A DNA stretch of 13,294 nucleotides, taken from the IMG/VR virus record IMGVR_UViG_3300048016_000310. One strand, 5' to 3'. Position 1 is the first letter of the stretch; each line of letters starts with the position of its first letter. The position numbers and the translations under genes were made by a program. Shown piece by piece: positions 6,358 through 13,294 of this stretch. This DNA comes from a virus. Taxonomy: Duplodnaviria > Heunggongvirae > Uroviricota > Caudoviricetes. Under the pieces are notes generated by a model. The model was not told the DNA's origin. It saw nothing but the letters and a program-made list of their open reading frames with translations, and searched no databases.

Positions 6358-7441
6358 AAGTACAGGAGATGAAACTCTTGATGCGTATATACAAATGAAT
6401 GAGGAGCAGCCAGAAGAGGTTGCTCCAACCAATGCTCTAGAAATAGAAGAGCCAGACTATAGTTTCCTTGATGATTTTGAAGATGATGAGGATGAGTCTA
6501 CTATTAGACAATACTATGGGAATGATGGAGTACAAGCTTACAGAGCTGCACCACTAAAACAAATGGATAAAGATGTAGCTCAAAAGGGCTACGACTATCT
6601 TACTAAAGTCTTAGGACAAGGAAAAGTTTTGGCAGCAGCTTTAGTAGGACAAATGATGAAAGAATCAGGAGGAAATCCTAAAGCAGTACATGATAATGGT
6701 ACTGGATATGGTCTATTTGGACATAGAGACCCTACTCCAAATAGAGGTAGAAAAACTAAATTGTTTAGCCATTTAGGAAGGTCAAATAAACCTGAATTCT
6801 TTGGACAACTTGATTATGCAGTAAAAGAACTAGCAACAGACTATCCATCTACTTATCAAAAAGTAAATAATACTGATAACATAGACTATGCTACAGAAAC
6901 TCTAATGACTGAGTGGGAAAGTCCTCATCCTAAATATGCAGATGCAAAAACTAGGAAAATGTGGGCTCGTAGTGTGTATCATCAGTATGGTGGAATAGTT
7001 TCTAACATTTCTCAAAGTCCTTGGCTACAACAAAATAAGCTTACATCTAGTTTAAATAATGGAATACCTTATTCAAACTTTAATCCACCTGTCTTAAACA
7101 GAGCAGAGTTTAATCAAACAACTCATGAAGCTTTCTTAGAAGAAGGGGCTCCTATAGATAATGATTTAACTTCGGGTTTATCTACTAGTCAATATGAAGC
7201 TATAGACCAACAGTTAGCCTCTAATATAGATAGGTTTTCTAAAGGACTTGAAGTTGCAGATCAATTTGAAGGTACTATGGGTCAAACTATTTCAGCAGGA
7301 ATAGCTGGAGCAGAATCGATGGTAAATAATAGAAATAACTTCCTAAATGCCTACAAAGAAAGACAAAGATTACTGCAAGAACAAAAAGAAGATTATAATG
7401 CTATGGATGGGCAGAATAAACAAAAAGAGATATGGACATAA
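6332..7441 (+). CDS. Virion protein with phage tail lysozyme (Phage_lysozyme2-like) domain and acidic N-terminus
   Basis: AAALVGQMMKESGGNP...GYGLF...QLDYAVKEL...ATETLMTEWESP matches the lysozyme-fold pattern, with the putative catalytic Glu in KES. The first ~60 aa are very rich in D/E. Confidence 0.75.
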   Translation: MMENPEDFESTGDETLDAYIQMNEEQPEEVAPTNALEIEEPDYSFLDDFEDDEDESTIRQYYGNDGVQAYRAAPLKQMDKDVAQKGYDYLTKVLGQGKVLAAALVGQMMKESGGNPKAVHDNGTGYGLFGHRDPTPNRGRKTKLFSHLGRSNKPEFFGQLDYAVKELATDYPSTYQKVNNTDNIDYATETLMTEWESPHPKYADAKTRKMWARSVYHQYGGIVSNISQSPWLQQNKLTSSLNNGIPYSNFNPPVLNRAEFNQTTHEAFLEEGAPIDNDLTSGLSTSQYEAIDQQLASNIDRFSKGLEVADQFEGTMGQTISAGIAGAESMVNNRNNFLNAYKERQRLLQEQKEDYNAMDGQNKQKEIWT

Positions 7442-7827
7442 AATTTAAAAAAAAGGAGTCATTTGTAGAAGTCATAAGCCAGCTAAAGCATGCTGGAACA
7501 CAAATGCACATCTTTCATTTACAAACACAGAGCTATGCTGAACACATGGCTTTAGGAGGATTTTATGATGGTCTTCCAGGACTCATAGATGGTTTAGTAG
7601 AAACAGTTCAAGGGAAAGAACAGTCTTTAGTAAAAGGCTACAAAGCTTTTCCATTTGCGGATTACACGAGTTCTGCTGCTACTTTACAATATTTACAAAA
7701 TTTATTATTGAAAATAGAATCTTATAGATTATCTTTACCAAAAAGTTGGGCTAACATTGATAATCAATTACAAGTAGTGATAGACCTAACTGAATCTACA
7801 ATGTATAAATTAAAATTTTTAAAATGA
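7432..7827 (+). CDS. Ferritin/Dps-like four-helix protein (DUF5856-like)
   Basis: HIFHLQTQSYAEHMALGGFYDGLPGLIDGLVETVQGK and a C-terminal YKLKFLK are characteristic of this phage ferritin-like family. Confidence 0.7.
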   Translation: MDIKFKKKESFVEVISQLKHAGTQMHIFHLQTQSYAEHMALGGFYDGLPGLIDGLVETVQGKEQSLVKGYKAFPFADYTSSAATLQYLQNLLLKIESYRLSLPKSWANIDNQLQVVIDLTESTMYKLKFLK

Positions 7828-8305: not shown

Positions 8306-10730
8306 GTACCTAAAACCAAAAGTAGTAGTAGAAAAAGGAGAGTATGTAAGAAACAATGCAGGACAAGTCATGCAGGTATCTCAGAATATGCCTACACACG
8401 ACGATACACACAAGGTTACCTCTACAGGTACAGAGAAAGTAAAAAAAGGTCAAGGAGGAGTAGAACTAGAGGGAATTGAATCTGTTGTATCTGCCACACA
8501 AGAAAATAGAAATCAGAAAGATTCTACCTATACGGTAGTAGATGATTCAATAAAGCTAAGACCTCAAGATGCTCAAGATTGGGCTATGTCTAAGTTTGGC
8601 ATCAAAATTGCAAAACCAAAAAGCTCTTTATCTTTTTCTAAAGCAATCACTTTAGTTAAAGACCAAGTAGATATAAAGGTTAAGAAGTATGAACAAGCTT
8701 TTCCTGAAGCATCAGACAAACTAGTACTTAATGCTGCAAAAGCAAACAAAGAAGTTCTAGAAACCCTACCAAGTCTTGAGGACATATATGAACAAGCATT
8801 GCAAGACCAAGAAGCTTTAAAGATTCCTGTACCACAACAGAACGCTCAAGTAGGTACTATGCAAGACTATGGTTTTAAATCTCCACAAACAGATAGGTAT
8901 AATTTTAAAAAAAAAGTACCAACAAAAGAAGAACTTTTATCTGACCAAAAGCAAGTATTAGCAAGAAACAAAGAAATTGTAGCAGCTAGATATAGAAATG
9001 TAGCATCTTCTCAGTTAGCAAGAGAAGCTCCTAATCAATTTTCTCCAGACATGATAGCTCAAAAAACTCAAGCTATTGGAGATAAATTTAGAATCTTTCC
9101 TAATGACCCTCATTCTTTTATTGATGATTACTTAAATCCAGGAGTAATGATAGGAGATTTAGCTTCTGGTGTAGGACAAATTCCTAAAAATGTGCAAGAT
9201 AAAGAATATGGTAAAGCCGCTTTAAATCTGGCAGCTCCAGTTGCTATAGGAGCTTTAGCTAGTTTTGGAGCAAAGGGAAATGGTCAATTTGTTAACAACT
9301 TAATAAATCCAGTAGCAGATGCAATTCCTTTTAGAATTACACCTAATAGTGCAGAAATCAATCAATTTAAAGATTTGTTTAAACCTAAAGAAGCTTTTGT
9401 TGGATTGAATGAAACTGAAAGACAGACTATAAGAGCAGTAAGAAACACAGGTTCTCAATTGGCAAGAGGTGTTTTAGATACCCCTGAAAAAGGATTAACT
9501 TTTTTAAACAAATTAAAAACAAGAGCTGATATTTTATCTGACTCTGAATTTCAAAATCTTACAGGATTTAATAAATCCAGTATAGATGAAAAAATAGATG
9601 ATTTAAAAAATGCTTCTAAGAAAAAAGAAGAAGAAGTTTTAGGTCTAGAAGACCAAGATGATGCTTTGTATGATGTACAATATACTCCTGAACCATCACT
9701 TGATAACTATGATGGTCCTATAAGAAGCTCAGAAGAAACCAGAGATTTCTACTTAAACACGCCCTCTGATGTTTATGAAAATATTGGAAGAGCTGCAGAT
9801 TCAAGTTTTTTAAGAAGATATAGAGGGTTAGTTGATGAGCAAAGACTTAATGATAATCAATTAGCACCTCCTCCAGAAATACTAAATTTTACTATTGACC
9901 CAATCTTCAATTCTAGAGCAGAGAGCTTTAGACAAGCATTATTTGAACATAAACAAAGAGATAAACCTTTTTTATTTAAAAAAGCACTAGATAAAGTTAG
10001 TGGAAATTTAACTCCTAGTAATAAAGAAATAGAACACTCTTTACTCCCTTCTTTATTTGCTAAAGGAGATTTTGACACAGGAAAAGAAATAAATAATGCT
10101 TTTAATATATTTAAAAATCTAGAAAAGGGAAAAACTGTAAATGCAGCTAATTCTTTATCTTCTGATAGTAAGTTATTAGAGTTACAAATGTATCAAAAAG
10201 CTGTAAACGAAGGTCTTGCAAAAGTAAACTATCATGGAGAAAATTATTTAAATGGGTTAGGTTTTGGAGAAAAGGCAAAATTAAATCCTACTTTGATTAA
10301 AAAAGAAATAGATACTTATATTGATAACTTAAATAAAACTGCAAAAACAAAAATACCTTATTCTAAAATAGAAGGAGAACATATATCATATCCTAATTTG
10401 TCTGTAACAAGAAAACAAGTAGGAGGAGAATTAGAGAAAAGAATTGAGAAAGGTAAAAAATGGTTTAAGAAAAAAGACTCAGAAGGAAAGTATCCTAAAA
10501 CTAAAGAAGTTTTTACTGCACAGGCTGGTACAAAAACAAAATTAAAACCATACCCCTACATGAAAGGTTCAAGACCTGCATTAGGAACTACATCAGGAAA
10601 GTCAATTGAATCTTTAGATGGAAGGTCTATTTCTATGGACCAAATCTATGATGCAGATTCAGTAGAAGTTCAAGGAGACAAAGCTAAAACTTTCTACAAG
10701 TCTAAGCTTCAAAAATATTTAAAAAAATAA
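8289..10730 (+). CDS. Large virion cargo/ejection-type protein (813 aa), function uncertain
   Basis: Long ORF closing the structural operon. It has N-terminal VEKGE...PTHDD and recurring Q-x-G-[GT] motifs, reminiscent of Bacteroidota-phage virion proteins. The function is inferred from context. Confidence 0.5.
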   Translation: MGKLNKYLKPKVVVEKGEYVRNNAGQVMQVSQNMPTHDDTHKVTSTGTEKVKKGQGGVELEGIESVVSATQENRNQKDSTYTVVDDSIKLRPQDAQDWAMSKFGIKIAKPKSSLSFSKAITLVKDQVDIKVKKYEQAFPEASDKLVLNAAKANKEVLETLPSLEDIYEQALQDQEALKIPVPQQNAQVGTMQDYGFKSPQTDRYNFKKKVPTKEELLSDQKQVLARNKEIVAARYRNVASSQLAREAPNQFSPDMIAQKTQAIGDKFRIFPNDPHSFIDDYLNPGVMIGDLASGVGQIPKNVQDKEYGKAALNLAAPVAIGALASFGAKGNGQFVNNLINPVADAIPFRITPNSAEINQFKDLFKPKEAFVGLNETERQTIRAVRNTGSQLARGVLDTPEKGLTFLNKLKTRADILSDSEFQNLTGFNKSSIDEKIDDLKNASKKKEEEVLGLEDQDDALYDVQYTPEPSLDNYDGPIRSSEETRDFYLNTPSDVYENIGRAADSSFLRRYRGLVDEQRLNDNQLAPPPEILNFTIDPIFNSRAESFRQALFEHKQRDKPFLFKKALDKVSGNLTPSNKEIEHSLLPSLFAKGDFDTGKEINNAFNIFKNLEKGKTVNAANSLSSDSKLLELQMYQKAVNEGLAKVNYHGENYLNGLGFGEKAKLNPTLIKKEIDTYIDNLNKTAKTKIPYSKIEGEHISYPNLSVTRKQVGGELEKRIEKGKKWFKKKDSEGKYPKTKEVFTAQAGTKTKLKPYPYMKGSRPALGTTSGKSIESLDGRSISMDQIYDADSVEVQGDKAKTFYKSKLQKYLKK

Positions 10731-10753
10731 GGCTACTTTCTGGTAGCCTTATT
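10721..10753. terminator. Bidirectional intrinsic terminator between convergent genes
   Basis: Perfect 11-bp inverted repeat AATAAGGCTAC (10726-36) / GTAGCCTTATT (10743-53) with a 6-nt loop. On the - strand it is followed by a long U tract. It overlaps both stop codons (TAA 10728-30, TAG 10733-35). Confidence 0.8.
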
Positions 10754-10954
10754 GTAATTTTTCTCATGTTTTTCTATCATAAAGACATAGTCGCATATGT
10801 CATAATCATTTATAATAGTTCGTGCTTGTGGAAGTTCCAGGTCTGGATTTAGTTTGAGTTGTCTTACTACATTATTAGTTCTGTTCCTAATTTGTTTGTA
10901 GTATTTGGAGGGTTTCTTATCTTTCAAAAAAGGCTCTTTAAAACTTCTTGACAT
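10733..10954 (-). CDS. 73-aa basic hypothetical protein (MSRSFK...DICDY type)
   Basis: The start was moved to the ATG at 10954, because the longer ORF-track start runs through the promoter into tRNA-Gln. The pattern MSRS.K...KD...K...NR..R...LP...DICDY resembles a recurrent small phage protein family. Confidence 0.7.
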   Translation of the reverse strand: MSRSFKEPFLKDKKPSKYYKQIRNRTNNVVRQLKLNPDLELPQARTIINDYDICDYVFMIEKHEKNYNKATRK

Positions 10955-10974
10955 ATAAAAAAAATTTAGTTTAA

Positions 10975-11005
10975 CAAATGTACTACTATTTTTTGAACTC
11001 ACAAT
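10975..11005 (-). promoter_or_regulatory. Bacteroidota sigma-A-type promoter
   Basis: On the - strand: ATTG (11005-02), a 19-nt spacer, then TACATTTG (10982-75), 20 nt before the ATG at 10954. The consensus is TTTG-N19-21-TAnnTTTG. Confidence 0.6.
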
Positions 11006-11012
11006 AAAAAAG

Positions 11013-11085
11013 TTGAGATATTTGGATTCGAACCAAAACAACAGCTGTCAAAGAGCTGTATGCTAAACCATTACATCATATCTCA
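11013..11085 (-). tRNA. trnQ: tRNA-Gln(UUG)
   Basis: TGAGATA/TATCTCA acceptor stem; CAGCT-CT TTG AC-AGCTG anticodon arm; TTCGAAT T loop. Confidence 0.95.
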
Positions 11086-11091
11086 ATAAAG

Positions 11092-11162
11092 CACAAAGAC
11101 TAGGAATCGAACCCAGGACAATGGTTTTGGAGACCTTTGTGATACCACTTCACCATCAATGT
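11092..11162 (-). tRNA. trnW: tRNA-Trp(CCA), weakly paired
   Basis: Loop CT CCA AA, G73 and a canonical T arm. The acceptor ACATTGA/TCTTTGT has two U-U mismatches and the anticodon stem has an A-A mismatch. Confidence 0.8.
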
Positions 11163-11168
11163 ATGTTG

Positions 11169-11242
11169 GGTATGTAAGCAGATTCGAACTGCCACCTCTT
11201 TGACTCACAATCAAAGCCTCTGACCATTAAGTTATACACACC
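11169..11242 (-). tRNA. trnH: tRNA-His(GUG) with encoded G-1
   Basis: G-1:C73 pair; GTGTGTA/TACATAC acceptor; TTTGA-TT GTG AG-TCAAA anticodon arm. Confidence 0.93.
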
Positions 11243-11248
11243 ATGTTG

Positions 11249-11322
11249 TAGGGATGACAGGATTTGAACCTGCGAACCTATGCTCCCAAAGCATAGTCAT
11301 ATTGCCTCTGTAAAACATCCCT
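11249..11322 (-). tRNA. trnP: tRNA-Pro(UGG)
   Basis: AGGGATG/CATCCCT acceptor; TATGC-TT TGG GA-GCATA anticodon arm; weak D stem. Confidence 0.92.
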
Positions 11323-11330
11323 AGATAAAG

Positions 11331-11401
11331 AGCTGAAACTCAGATTCGAACTGAGGATGGAGCTTTTGCAGAGCTCTGCCTTACCACTTGGCCATTTCAG
11401 C
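11331..11401 (-). tRNA. trnC: tRNA-Cys(GCA)
   Basis: GCTGAAA/TTTCAGC acceptor; U73; GAGCT-CT GCA AA-AGCTC anticodon arm. Confidence 0.95.
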
Positions 11402-11403
11402 AT

Positions 11404-11437
11404 AAAATAAAAAATCCTCAACCATAAGGAAGAGGAT
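11404..11437 (-). terminator. Intrinsic terminator (attenuator 3:4 hairpin) directly upstream of tRNA-Cys
   Basis: ATCCTCTTCC-TTAT-GGTTGAGGAT (8 bp, 2 U-U mismatches) followed by TTTTTATTTT; the tract ends 2 nt before the tRNA-Cys 5' end. Confidence 0.8.
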
Positions 11438-11462
11438 GCAAAAAGACTTTTAATGTCTTAGT

Positions 11463-11528
11463 TTAGAACATACCTCTCCCAGCCTTGTAACAAGGACACC
11501 ATTGGGGAGTATGTTGTAAATTTTTCAT
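11463..11528 (-). CDS. 21-aa attenuator leader peptide MKNLQHTPQWCPCYKAGRGMF
   Basis: ATG AAA AAT TTA CAA CAT ACT CCC CAA TGG TGT CCT TGT TAC AAG GCT GGG AGA GGT ATG TTC TAA. The ATG is 4 nt after the -7 box, so the mRNA is probably leaderless. Confidence 0.75.
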   Translation of the reverse strand: MKNLQHTPQWCPCYKAGRGMF

Positions 11529-11532
11529 GGTA

Positions 11533-11563
11533 CAAAAGTAATACATTAATTTGTTATTTCAAA
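11533..11563 (-). promoter_or_regulatory. Bacteroidota sigma-A promoter, consensus match
   Basis: TTTG (11563-60), a 19-nt spacer, then TACTTTTG (11540-33). Confidence 0.8.
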
Positions 11564-11661
11564 GGGATATTTCCCAATTCTACGAAAAGTGCAATAAAAG
11601 GACTTGCACAAAGACCTATGATAAGTAAAATATTATACCATTTTTTCAGATTAACTCTCAT
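11554..11661 (-). CDS. 35-aa single-pass membrane peptide
   Basis: MRVNLKKWYNILLIIGLCASPFIALFVELGNIPLK*. It has a basic N-terminus and a hydrophobic stretch, an A-rich 5' region (CAACTAAAAAC-ATG) and an upstream -7 box. Confidence 0.6.
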   Translation of the reverse strand: MRVNLKKWYNILLIIGLCASPFIALFVELGNIPLK

Positions 11662-11685
11662 GTTTTTAGTTGTTTAATTATACCA

Positions 11686-11693
11686 CAAATGTA
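11686..11693 (-). promoter_or_regulatory. Putative Bacteroidota -7 promoter element
   Basis: TACATTTG, identical to the element at 10982-75, lies 24 nt before the ATG at 11661. There is no -33 TTTG at canonical spacing. Confidence 0.45.
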
Positions 11694-11763
11694 GGAATTA
11701 AATAAATACCAATCACTAGAAAATACAAAAGTTCTTTAAAAAATACAATAGATTCTTTAAAAG

Positions 11764-11840
11764 TGGAAGCTATGGGCATCGAACCCATCTGATAATCCTC
11801 TGTGCAAGAGAGGTAAACACTCCAAGCATTTCCAGCCCCC
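11764..11840 (-). tRNA. trnA: tRNA-Ala(UGC), atypical core
   Basis: GGGGGCT/AGCTTCC acceptor with G3:U70; CCTCT-CT TGC AC-AGAGG anticodon arm; G8, G14 and an 8-nt variable region. Confidence 0.88.
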
Positions 11841-11845
11841 GAATG

Positions 11846-11916
11846 TGGAATAGGGAGGAATCGAACCTCCGCTGGCAACTCTTCAGGCTGCTGCTCTACC
11901 CCTGAGCTACTATTCC
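11846..11916 (-). tRNA. trnF: tRNA-Phe(GAA)
   Basis: GGAATAG/CTATTCC acceptor; GCAGC-CT GAA GA-GTTGC anticodon arm. Confidence 0.95.
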
Positions 11917-11924
11917 ATTTGTTG

Positions 11925-11998
11925 AGGGAGGTGTTGGATTCGAACCAACAACCTGAGAGTTAACAGCTCCCTGCTCTGGCCATTATAGCTAACCTCCC
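11925..11998 (-). tRNA. trnN: tRNA-Asn(GUU)
   Basis: GGGAGGT/ACCTCCC acceptor; GGGAG-CT GTT AA-CTCTC anticodon arm; U73. Confidence 0.93.
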
Positions 11999-12003
11999 AA
12001 TTG

Positions 12004-12074
12004 TAGGAATAACAAGATTTGAACTTGTAAGACATCCTTATCAGGATGCATGATAACCATTTCATTATACTCCT
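12004..12074 (-). tRNA. trnI: tRNA-Ile(GAU) with a 6-nt anticodon loop (one nucleotide short)
   Basis: AGGAGTA/TATTCCT acceptor and intact D and T arms. The anticodon arm CATCC-TGATAA-GGATG is 16 nt instead of 17. Confidence 0.75.
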
Positions 12075-12223
12075 TTTTCTAATTTTAATCTTTTTTCATA
12101 TTTTCCTATAAGCTTAGTAATCTGACCATATGAAACATATGAACCTTGTTTAATCTGCCCTAACTCTCCAGTATAAGCTGTAGAATACTGGAGAGCTCTT
12201 AAGTCTGCTAAAAATTCTTCCAT
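12065..12223 (-). CDS. 52-aa hypothetical protein overlapping the tRNA-Ile(GAU) 5' end
   Basis: MEEFLADLRALQYSTAYTGELGQIKQGSYVSYGQITKLIGKYEKRLKLEKGV*. It fills the gap between tRNAs and has an A-rich 5' context (AAAATAA-ATG). Confidence 0.6.
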   Translation of the reverse strand: MEEFLADLRALQYSTAYTGELGQIKQGSYVSYGQITKLIGKYEKRLKLEKGV

Positions 12224-12239
12224 TTATTTTAATGTTTTG

Positions 12240-12316
12240 TGCAGTAGGTGGGTGTCGAACCCACTATATTCCTTCTGTTTGGAAGACAGACATGCAACCA
12301 CTTACACCTCTACTGC
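12240..12316 (-). tRNA. trnG: tRNA-Gly(UCC), atypical core
   Basis: GCAGTAG/CTACTGC acceptor; TCTGT-CT TCC AA-ACAGA anticodon arm; A8, A73 and a 9-nt variable region. Confidence 0.87.
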
Positions 12317-12367
12317 AAATTGAGTAGTCCCATTTCTGGATTATGCCTTCTGCTACTCACAGGCTTG

Positions 12368-12438
12368 AGCTCCTTAACAGATTCGAACTGTTATACCTGG
12401 GTTACAACGCCAGTATTCTACCATTGAACTAAAGAAGC
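12368..12438 (-). tRNA. trnT: tRNA-Thr(UGU)
   Basis: GCTTCTT/AAGGAGC acceptor with C2:G71; CTGGC-GT TGT AA-CCCAG anticodon arm with a C31-C39 mismatch and G32. Confidence 0.85.
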
Positions 12439-12444
12439 TTAAAG

Positions 12445-12532
12445 CAGTTGTGACGGGATTTGAACCCGCATGTCCTATACAGAACTCCAGAGTGACAGTC
12501 TGGGAGGGATAACCTGATTCCCCAACACAACT
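12445..12532 (-). tRNA. trnD: tRNA-Asp(GUC) with a 17-nt variable arm
   Basis: AGTTGTG/CACAACT acceptor; G73; CCAGA-CT GTC AC-TCTGG anticodon arm; V arm A-GTTCT-GTAT-AGGAC-AT. Confidence 0.88.
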
Positions 12533-12546
12533 ATATTTTATTTTTG

Positions 12547-12620
12547 TTCTCCCACAGGGACTTGAACCCTGAACCCCAGCATTAAAAGTGCCGTACTCTA
12601 GCCAATTGAGCTATAGGAGA
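12547..12620 (-). tRNA. trnK: tRNA-Lys(UUU)
   Basis: TCTCCTA/TGGGAGA acceptor; CGGCA-CT TTT AA-TGCTG anticodon arm. Confidence 0.95.
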
Positions 12621-12648
12621 TTATTACTCTCCTATTGGAAGGAGAGTG

Positions 12649-12681
12649 TTACTGTTTATATACTGTTTTAAATTTGTTCAT
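12649..12681 (-). CDS. 10-aa mini-ORF MNKFKTVYKQ, possibly regulatory
   Basis: The ATG overlaps the upstream stop (TAATG). It contains three AAA codons, and its stop is 1 nt before a hairpin abutting tRNA-Lys. Confidence 0.35.
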   Translation of the reverse strand: MNKFKTVYKQ

Positions 12682-12899
12682 TATAATTGTTTTGTTAATA
12701 ATCCAGCTACTCTATGTATTGCTTTTTCTCCTAATCCTTGGAGTTCTACACCTGTAACTAAATACTGTTTGTTTTCTATAGTAATTTCTTTACCAATTAA
12801 GTTCAAGTCTTTTCTTAATGTAGGTAAGTTATTTTTCTCTAAATCTATAACAAAGACTTTTCCTCTTCCTATAATATTAAAGTATGTTTCTACTATCAT
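12681..12899 (-). CDS. 72-aa stand-alone EF-Tu domain II-like beta-barrel protein
   Basis: VETYFNIIGRGKV...IGKEITI...VTGVE...AGLL aligns by eye to EF-Tu IEDVFSISGRGTV...VGEEVEI...CTGVE...VGVLL. Confidence 0.6.
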   Translation of the reverse strand: MIVETYFNIIGRGKVFVIDLEKNNLPTLRKDLNLIGKEITIENKQYLVTGVELQGLGEKAIHRVAGLLTKQL

Positions 12900-12915
12900 A
12901 ATTTTTAATGTTTAG

Positions 12916-12987
12916 TAGGTTGTTGGTGACTCGAACACCAATTGCAAAGATATAAGCTTTGTATCCTTACCTTTAGATGAACAACCT
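12916..12987 (-). tRNA. trnI: tRNA-Ile(UAU)
   Basis: AGGTTGT/ACAACCT acceptor; A73; CAAAG-CT TAT AT-CTTTG anticodon arm. Confidence 0.87.
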
Positions 12988-12995
12988 ATGTTTAG

Positions 12996-13066
12996 TAGAC
13001 CTTATAGGAATCGAACCTATGTATCTGGTATGTAACACCAGTGCTAATCCCCTCAGCTAAAAGTCT
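12996..13066 (-). tRNA. trnV: tRNA-Val(UAC)
   Basis: AGACTTT/AAGGTCT acceptor; CTGGT-GT TAC AT-ACCAG anticodon arm (G32, U38). Confidence 0.9.
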
Positions 13067-13071
13067 ATATG

Positions 13072-13170
13072 CTGTGAAAGAAAGATTCGAACTTTCATTT
13101 CTAGGTATTCAATATATTTCCTAGCTTCCACGAGACAGGTGGTTGGGTGTGCCAATTTCCCTACTTCACA
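13072..13170 (-). tRNA. trnD: tRNA-Asp(GUC)-like, 99 nt, with U37 and a 30-nt variable arm
   Basis: TGTGAAG/TTTCACA acceptor; G73; CCAC-CT GTC TC-GTGG anticodon arm; V arm closed by CTAGG/CCTAG; canonical T arm. Confidence 0.7.
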
Positions 13171-13174
13171 ATTT

Positions 13175-13249
13175 TGGAGGGTTTACTAGGAATCCAACCT
13201 AGATTCAAGAGTTAGAAGCTCCTTGTACTGTGCATTGTACTATAAACCC
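13175..13249 (-). tRNA. trnR: tRNA-Arg(UCU) with encoded CCA and C19:G56
   Basis: GGGTTTA/TAAACCC acceptor; AGGAG-CT TCT AA-CTCTT anticodon arm; D loop AATGCACA; T loop TTGGATT. Confidence 0.88.
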
Positions 13250-13254
13250 TTATA

Positions 13255-13284
13255 ACAAAAAATCCCCCAATTGCTTGGAGGATT
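13255..13284 (-). terminator. Intrinsic terminator directly upstream of tRNA-Arg (probable second attenuator)
   Basis: AATCCTCCAA-GCAA-TTGGGGGATT (10 bp including one G-U, GNRA loop) followed by TTTTGTT, ending a few nt before tRNA-Arg. Confidence 0.8.
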
Positions 13285-13294
13285 CTCTTTATAT

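Follow-up and report, generated by a model that had tools for sequence, protein, structure and literature searches.

Anatomy of the locus

The stretch of viral DNA analysed here (IMG/VR record IMGVR_UViG_3300048016_000310, 13,294 nucleotides (nt), hereafter the window) carries on its minus strand a block of five tRNA genes that is preceded by a short open reading frame (ORF), the leader, and by an intrinsic terminator. The genes of the plus strand have relatives annotated as virion structural proteins of Cellulophaga phages, Flavobacterium phages and a gut crAss-like phage, and CrAss_Ring Pfam families are present on homologous contigs. The DNA sequencing runs listed as containing the window sequence are freshwater metagenomes, and no RNA run is listed for it. 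Judged from its sequence, the window is part of a crAss-like phage; the host is probably a member of the Bacteroidota, with which the type of promoter found ahead of the leader agrees.

The locus was read from 10300 to 11800 on the minus strand, and tRNA genes were called with ARAGORN and Infernal. The features that matter here, all on the minus strand, are the following.

11533-11563, minus strand: promoter of the Bacteroidota sigma-A type, read from the sequence
11563-11560, minus strand: -33 element TTTG, followed by a 19-nt spacer
11540-11533, minus strand: -7 box TACTTTTG
11528, minus strand: predicted +1, the A of the leader ATG, from the box spacing
11463-11528, minus strand: leader ORF of 21 codons plus TAA, MKNLQHTPQWCPCYKAGRGMF
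11490-11516, minus strand: regulatory core, codons 5-13, CAA CAT ACT CCC CAA TGG TGT CCT TGT (Q H T P Q W C P C)
11505-11515, minus strand: region 1 (AACATACTCCC), paired with region 2 in the minimum-energy fold
11467-11480, minus strand: region 2 (GGGAGAGGTATGTT), in the last codons of the ORF, with region 1 or region 3 as partner
11443-11459, minus strand: small spacer hairpin AAGAC/GTCTT, present in the free and the constrained folds
11404-11438, minus strand: intrinsic terminator, made of region 3 (11438-11428), region 4 (11423-11414) and the U tract TTTTTATTTT (11413-11404)
11330-11401, minus strand: tRNA-Cys (GCA), ARAGORN and Infernal
11248-11322, minus strand: tRNA-Pro (UGG), ARAGORN and Infernal
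11168-11241, minus strand: tRNA-His (GUG), ARAGORN and Infernal
11091-11162, minus strand: tRNA-Trp (CCA), ARAGORN and Infernal
11012-11085, minus strand: tRNA-Gln (UUG), ARAGORN and Infernal

Only 4 nt (tacc) separate the -7 box from the ATG (11528-11526). The core of the leader ends with the Cys13 codon (11492-11490), and eight of its nine codons specify Q, H, P, W or C, the residues carried by the five tRNAs behind the terminator. Further downstream, the terminator hairpin (11438-11414) has a predicted stability of -11.2 kcal/mol, and the U tract ends 2 nt from tRNA-Cys. A first-pass annotation made from the letters alone had proposed the promoter, the ORF, regions 1 to 4, the U tract and the five tRNAs; we found all of them at the coordinates it gave, and its count of eight codons in nine matching the five tRNAs was borne out on rereading.

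In the best stretch of 10 residues of the window leader, eight belong to the downstream set, for which the background frequency is 0.118, giving a binomial tail of about 1e-6 per window. When 43 tRNA sets were tried on this leader, an equal score came only from the identical Cys-Pro-His-Trp-Gln sets of two relatives. A chance origin of the match between leader and tRNAs was considered and rejected on this binomial tail and on the match of leaders to tRNA sets far beyond chance.

Start of the leader transcript

The position of the promoter relative to the ORF bears on how translation of the leader could begin. In Flavobacterium psychrophilum, the TAnnTTTG box is located at -12 to -5 and leaderless mRNAs make up about 5% of the mRNAs (PMC9723704), and in Bacteroides thetaiotaomicron about 4% of the 5′ untranslated regions are shorter than 10 nt (PMC7366714). 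Given the 4-nt spacer after the -7 box and the box position in F. psychrophilum, the +1 is predicted to be the A of the AUG. The mRNA of the window leader is thus probably leaderless, which would let a ribosome load once the 5′ end emerges. The same promoter motif lies ahead of most of the leaders of the relatives described below, and the exact 4-nt spacing between box and ATG recurs in 12 of 22 leaders.

Conservation in close relatives

With the 813-amino-acid (aa) neighbour protein as a query, we retrieved contigs with the same layout, namely Ala, a gap, and Cys-Pro-His-Trp-Gln (L010, L011 and L014). Within the Ala-Cys gap, which aligns with a mean identity of 88%, the promoter is conserved in all three contigs, the ATG is kept 4 nt past the -7 box and the stop is kept at the 3′ end of region 2. 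The terminator sequence is invariant in the three, and the CAACATACTCC part of region 1 is invariant in four relatives. Region 2 occurs as GGGAGAGG, GGAAGTGG and GGGGAGGA, variants that are purine-rich and complementary to both partners throughout.

The leader peptides themselves (MKNLQHTPQWCPCYKAGRGML in L011, MNTTSQHTPCQWHPFYKAGSGML in L010 and MNILVQHTPCQWQPQVLGEDM in L014) diverge. Their cores read QHTPQWCPC, QHTPCQWHPF and QHTPCQWQPQ: after the conserved QHTP..QW, the variable positions are C-P-C, H-P-F and Q-P-Q, radical changes that all stay within the five-member set bar one F. The insertions or deletions of L010 amount to two separate 3-nt insertions that leave frame, start and stop intact. 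Length changes only in multiples of three, which is not expected of an untranslated spacer; together with the conserved start and stop, this lends indirect support to translation of the leader. In L014, the Cys and Pro tRNAs were missed by both ARAGORN and Infernal and are visible by eye, with variable-region inserts of 16-27 nt.

Directly upstream of the leader, and conserved in the same three contigs, lies a 35-aa hydrophobic mini-protein (MRVNLKKWYNILLIIGLCASPFIALFVELGNIPLK, window 11554-11661, minus strand), and the -33 element of the leader promoter sits inside its last codons.

The contigs of P0008 and P0012 have no tRNA array at the corresponding position, and the P0006 locus (L228) has only one tRNA. 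When the tRNA region was compared as DNA with the phage collection, the matches were at the level of tRNAs only. In IMG/VR, a protein-pattern scan with the 813-aa neighbour gave no match, and neither the degenerate leader pattern nor the terminator pattern matched anything (0 matches each). On metagenome contigs, the terminator pattern gave 91 matches, almost all of them in rRNA or in a conserved gene of bacteria with a high guanine and cytosine content, and 0 in phage homologues. A short region-1 pattern with 117 IMG/VR matches was judged too unspecific and was not used. Finally, the contigs of four freshwater runs covering the leader showed no variant letters and are uninformative on microdiversity.

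Matched leaders and tRNA blocks in distant relatives

We scanned the gaps of the tRNA arrays in five IMG/VR genomes found through a 1728-aa protein, in a sixth IMG/VR genome, in Cellulophaga phage phi17:2 and in Leptolyngbya phage Lbo-JY46. Across these relatives we repeatedly found short ORFs composed largely of the amino acids carried by the tRNAs that follow.

phi17:2 (NC_021798): core QRLHLQELEQP, before Pro-Glu-Gln-His-Leu-Leu-Arg, 11 of 11 residues in the set; a leader begins near 87518, with tRNA-Pro at 87649
phi17:2: leader NYCTYNNSNWSFSY, before Tyr and Ser-Asn-Trp-Phe; a leader before tRNA-Tyr begins near 90037
L223: leader NNWHNTFNNFTPDQQD, before Pro-Asp-Asn-Asp-Thr-Phe-Gln-His-Trp
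Several genomes: leader of the SYLLSLSYLS type, before Leu-Leu-Ser-Ser-Tyr
Several genomes: leader of the IIIVGRGAER type, before Arg-Arg-Gly-Glu-Met-Ile-Val
Lbo-JY46: leader MKITRQHTQFWFPTGTGLGML, before Pro-Thr-Phe-Gln-His-Arg(ACG)-Trp

A matched leader set of the relatives comprises Arg, Gly, Glu, Met, Ile, Val and Lys. The agreement extends to isoacceptors: leaders before Arg(UCU) and Arg(ACG) contain AGA and CGC, and those before Gln(UUG) and Gln(CUG) contain CAA and CAG.

Co-variation is seen in the leader of Lbo-JY46, which is homologous to that of the window (CAACATAC of region 1 and GGTATGTT-TAA in common) and stands before a different set of tRNAs, of which tRNA-Arg was called by ARAGORN at relaxed settings and tRNA-Trp was read by eye. 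At the places of the window Cys codons it has Phe, Thr and Arg codons, and all 11 residues of its core, TRQHTQFWFPT, belong to its own tRNA set. The pairing of regions 2 and 3 is altered on both sides, CTGGGC:GCCCAG in Lbo-JY46 versus GGGAGAGG:CCTCTTCC in the window. Two of the checks proposed with the first-pass annotation, that leader content should co-vary with the downstream tRNA set and that the 2:3 stem should show compensatory changes, thus came out in favour of its reading.

The host of Lbo-JY46 (L240, PP438436, 118200-123800) merits a separate remark. This phage was reported on a cyanobacterium, and it displays the same TTTG / TAnnTTTG promoters of the Bacteroidota type and the same leader attenuators as the phages of Bacteroidota. 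Either promoters of this type belong to the phages themselves, or the reported host should be reconsidered.

Sister units in the same array

The window unit has a partner at the window edge. A second, paralogous attenuator terminator (13257-13284, minus strand) lies before a block of 12 tRNAs that starts with tRNA-Arg; its leader ORF falls just past the window edge. In the near-identical relative L011, the identical terminator is preceded by the leader MSLVKINNGIFRTADKDFI (15309-15368, minus strand), in which 16 of the 18 residues after the start belong to the ten-amino-acid set of the 12-tRNA block, and none of the ten is missing. Among the codons of this leader are AGA, which fits Arg(UCU), and, for the two Ile tRNAs, ATA alongside ATT/ATC. 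Right after the leader stop stands TGGAGGA, complementary to the terminator arm TCCTCCA. The ATG of this leader overlaps the stop of an 80-aa gene (ATGA), and this leader is therefore not leaderless. A third L011 leader, MKNFTSYSLYLESENKILRR, lies ahead of Glu-Tyr-Leu-Leu and Ser-Ser, and the three leaders of L011 jointly name 19 amino acids with no overlap.

Significance of the match across the clade

To avoid choosing leaders by their composition, we defined units by architecture alone: an ATG-initiated ORF of 15-45 codons in the gap before a tRNA, with its stop 10-50 nt before a hairpin of at most -9 kcal/mol followed by a U tract. There are 24 such units in 12 loci. Each was scored by the best 10-residue binomial enrichment for its downstream tRNA set.

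The summed score is 93.5, versus 31.1 ± 7.2 when all units are permuted (z = 8.6, p < 5e-5), versus 47.9 ± 10.6 when sets are permuted within genomes only (z = 4.3, p < 5e-5), and the six divergent genomes alone give z = 6.2 (p < 5e-5); homologous leaders share descent, so that these p-values overstate independence and are upper bounds on the significance. A gap-based test agrees with the architecture-based permutation.

Folding and predicted switch behaviour

The free RNA of the window folds into the 1:2 pairing, the small hairpin and the terminator (-32.5 kcal/mol; z = -2.67 against shuffles). Blocking region 1 makes the 2:3 antiterminator the minimum-energy fold, whereas a ribosome placed at the stop makes it the terminator. 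The constrained folding proposed with the first-pass annotation, with region 1 free or blocked, hence gave the terminator and the antiterminator, respectively, as it had anticipated.

We then used a partition-function model in which a ribosome covers the mRNA through 10 nt past its A-site codon. In this footprint model, the probability of the terminator in the window is 0.96 for the free RNA, between 0.0 and 0.6 while one of codons 3-14 occupies the A site, 0.9 or more from codon 15 on, and 0.96 at the stop. The switch is predicted for 12 of 22 units, with the trough over the regulatory codons.

The ends of the ORFs favour the terminator of their own unit. In the window, the duplex of region 2 with the 5′ arm of the terminator is worth -12.6 kcal/mol and ranks first of 22 ORF tails on that arm. 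Across units, the ORF tail (its last 33 nt) pairs with the 5′ arm of its own terminator with a mean of -12.0 kcal/mol versus -7.7 kcal/mol for non-cognate arms (p < 5e-5), and the cognate tail ranked first of 22 in eight cases, the window included. A terminator of -10 to -21 kcal/mol with a U tract was found in 22 of the 22 leaders examined. In 18 of these 22, the U tract starts 6-12 nt ahead of the first tRNA called by ARAGORN; the longer spacings, of 86-103 nt, include that of L014, whose insert-bearing tRNA-Cys escaped ARAGORN.

Taken as a whole, the unit displays a codon-enriched upstream ORF, an intrinsic terminator between it and the genes, and a mutually exclusive antiterminator that uses the 5′ arm of the terminator. 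In silico, under the footprint model, the antiterminator is available while the ribosome stalls at the regulatory codons and is hidden once it has reached the stop. These are among the features by which a leader-peptide attenuator is recognised.

A putative attenuator of phage tRNA genes

The comparative and folding evidence strongly supports the view that the window unit acts as a ribosome-mediated, leader-peptide transcription attenuator that would gate a five-gene phage tRNA operon, a reading to which we assign a probability of about 0.78. We can propose the following sequence of events. A host-type RNA polymerase would initiate at the A of the leader AUG or at a neighbouring position, yielding a leaderless mRNA whose leader is translated by a ribosome behind the moving polymerase. 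A shortage of charged tRNA for Gln, His, Pro, Trp or Cys would hold the ribosome at codons 5-13, where it would cover region 1. Region 2, left free, would then pair with region 3 to form the antiterminator, and the polymerase would enter tRNA-Cys-Pro-His-Trp-Gln. With fast decoding, the ribosome would reach the last codons or the stop and cover region 2, and the 3:4 terminator would form 2 nt before tRNA-Cys. In the absence of a ribosome, the 1:2 and 3:4 pairings would lead to termination as well. The products of the operon would relieve the very stall that induces them, a negative feedback fitting the phage tRNA supply to the decoding demand.

Judged from the genomes compared, the window unit is one case of a general design across related crAss-like phages, phi17:2 and Lbo-JY46 included. 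It appears likely, although with somewhat less assurance than for the window unit itself, that the whole tRNA repertoire of crAss-like and related Bacteroidota phages is placed under a few, mostly leaderless attenuators that partition the amino acids among them, each block being transcribed only when its own codons are decoded slowly. A plausible setting for such a system is a phage rich in adenine and thymine, with a codon usage of its own, that depends on a declining pool of host tRNAs.

Several points weigh against this reading. The Thr7 codon (ACT) of the core has no matching tRNA in the downstream block, and tRNA-Pro(UGG) could read CCC and CCT, which are not its Watson-Crick cognates, only through four-way wobble by U34. 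No switch is seen in 10 of 22 units with the simple equilibrium model, and a kinetic, co-transcriptional argument is needed for these; the equilibrium switch is also weaker in L010 (minimum probability of the terminator 0.20) and L014 (0.47). The problem of shared descent among leaders is lessened by the within-genome test and by that on six divergent genomes, and is not removed by them. Moreover, crAss-like phages carry their own RNA polymerases, and if such an enzyme transcribes the region, intrinsic termination and coupling to the ribosome are not assured. Lastly, amino-acid starvation would likewise induce read-through, at a time when extra tRNA is useless.

A separate question is what the attenuator was selected for. 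The same device could serve as an inducible counter-defence that replaces tRNAs cut by host anticodon nucleases: a sensor of decoding speed would react to tRNA cleavage, extra tRNA remedies cleavage and not amino-acid starvation, and phage tRNAs can offset tRNA-targeting defences. Nonetheless, the leaders of this lineage and its relatives jointly cover essentially every amino acid, well beyond the few tRNAs known as nuclease targets, and we regard a dedicated role in counter-defence as improbable. Since the leaders have this coverage, general supply-and-demand homeostasis of the tRNA supply is the more economical reading. The interpretation given in the first-pass annotation therefore divides in two: the trp-type attenuator with matching codons is supported by folding, co-variation and compensatory change, and the counter-defence role, with which the design is compatible, gains no specific support, the leaders of L011 alone covering 19 amino acids.

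An alternative that dispenses with attenuation is that the ORF encodes an independent micro-protein, has a promoter and a terminator to itself, and happens to be lodged in a tRNA array that is expressed from other promoters or by unregulated read-through. The array does contain other small ORFs, such as the one for the membrane peptide of 35 aa immediately upstream and two more, 52 and 72 aa long. Yet the leader peptide is poorly conserved except for a composition that tracks the tRNA set, and does so far beyond chance; the ORF tails are complementary to their own terminators, and almost every unit has its terminator right against the first tRNA. We consider a free-standing micro-protein very unlikely. 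Least probable of all, and hardly credible, is an RNA-only element with an incidental open frame (a T-box-like tRNA-binding riboswitch, a processing signal or a small RNA): although the nucleotides of region 1 and of the terminator are conserved and the fold is more stable than shuffles, the start, stop and frame survive 3-nt indels, a run of 9-16 codons naming up to nine tRNAs is unlike a single specifier codon, and no Rfam family other than tRNA matches at E values up to 1.

Other features of the tRNA array

Several tRNAs of these phages have unusual features. Variable-region inserts of 12-30 nt occur in the Cys, Pro and Trp tRNAs of L014 and in the Asp tRNA of the window, and some of the genes concerned were missed by ARAGORN and Infernal; the insert-bearing tRNAs are at 7415-7640 and 7254-7336 in L014 and at 12444-12532 and 13072-13170 in the window, all on the minus strand. 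The tRNA-Pro anticodon is AGG in L010 (7390-7464, minus strand) versus UGG in the window, both leaders using CCC and CCT, and the AGG form would decode CCC/CCT directly. Finally, ARAGORN gives a four-base anticodon (gata) for a window tRNA that aligns with the tRNA-Ile(GAU) of the relatives, a separate tRNA-Ile(UAU) being present; the two Ile-related genes are at 12003-12074 and 12915-12987 (minus strand).

Another small ORF precedes tRNA-Lys(UUU). This TAATG-coupled mini-ORF, MNKFKTVYKQ (window 12626-12681, minus strand), contains three AAA codons and is followed by a hairpin that has no U tract, then by the tRNA gene. Its counterparts are MKKVGKKYKQ in L011, MTVELDKKYKQ in L014 and MKNIKVFCKQN in phi17:2. 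It may be a switch of another type that works on the precursor of tRNA-Lys.

Implications and comparison with known systems

Little is known about how phages regulate the tRNA genes they carry; for tRNA genes in general, we know of growth-rate and stringent control, and not of attenuation. The first-pass annotation knew of no phage tRNA operon regulated in this manner, and our full-text literature search likewise found no description of leader-peptide control of tRNA genes, whether of phages or of other origin. If the proposed attenuation is true, it would constitute a sensor-actuator loop in which the pace of the ribosome on chosen codons determines how much of the corresponding tRNAs is supplied. 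It would also account for the splitting of tRNA arrays into blocks, for the small ORFs and terminators between these blocks, and for which tRNAs are found together. In bioinformatic annotation, the leaders could indicate the tRNAs that a phage treats as limiting. For Bacteroidota, which have few genetic tools, they could also supply compact, codon-specific regulatory parts that are probably leaderless. The design is also present in a cultured phage-host pair (Cellulophaga baltica and phi17:2), which makes the question directly testable.

Among known systems, the enterobacterial trpL, hisL, pheL, leuL, thrL and ilv leaders are the closest. They have in common with the window unit a short ORF rich in regulatory codons, the alternative 1:2, 2:3 and 3:4 pairings, a terminator just before the genes, and a stop placed so that a finishing ribosome would mask region 2. 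With the thrL and ilv leaders, it also shares the predicted sensing of several amino acids together, although the phage units would go up to ten amino acids per leader, unlike those of enterobacteria. While the classical leaders regulate genes for amino-acid biosynthesis or transport, the window unit would regulate five tRNA genes, whose product would relieve the stall directly. It further differs from the enterobacterial leaders in being phage-encoded, in its Bacteroidota-type setting, in the lack of a Shine-Dalgarno sequence and in its probably leaderless mRNA. None of the Rfam leader families (Trp_leader, His_leader, Thr_leader, Leu_leader and others) has a covariance-model match in 10700-13294.

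The pheST attenuator, in which a leader peptide controls an aminoacyl-tRNA synthetase operon, is chromosomal and senses one amino acid. The window unit resembles it in that attenuation would bear on a component of the translation apparatus rather than on amino-acid biosynthesis, and differs from it by its target, which in pheST is a synthetase, by the number of amino acids sensed and by its location on a phage genome. T-box riboswitches also sense the status of tRNA and also choose between a terminator and an antiterminator. However, they are untranslated and bind uncharged tRNA through a specifier codon and the T-box sequence, whereas the window unit has a conserved reading frame and no T-box match: a cmscan search of 10700-13294 against Rfam, at E values up to 1, yielded nothing but tRNA and three unrelated matches below threshold, with no leader family and no T-box (RF00230). 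Altogether, the proposed mechanism is one known from the trp, his, thr and ilv attenuators, and what differs is the tRNA target, the direct feedback by the product, the location in a phage of Bacteroidota type, and a start that is probably leaderless.

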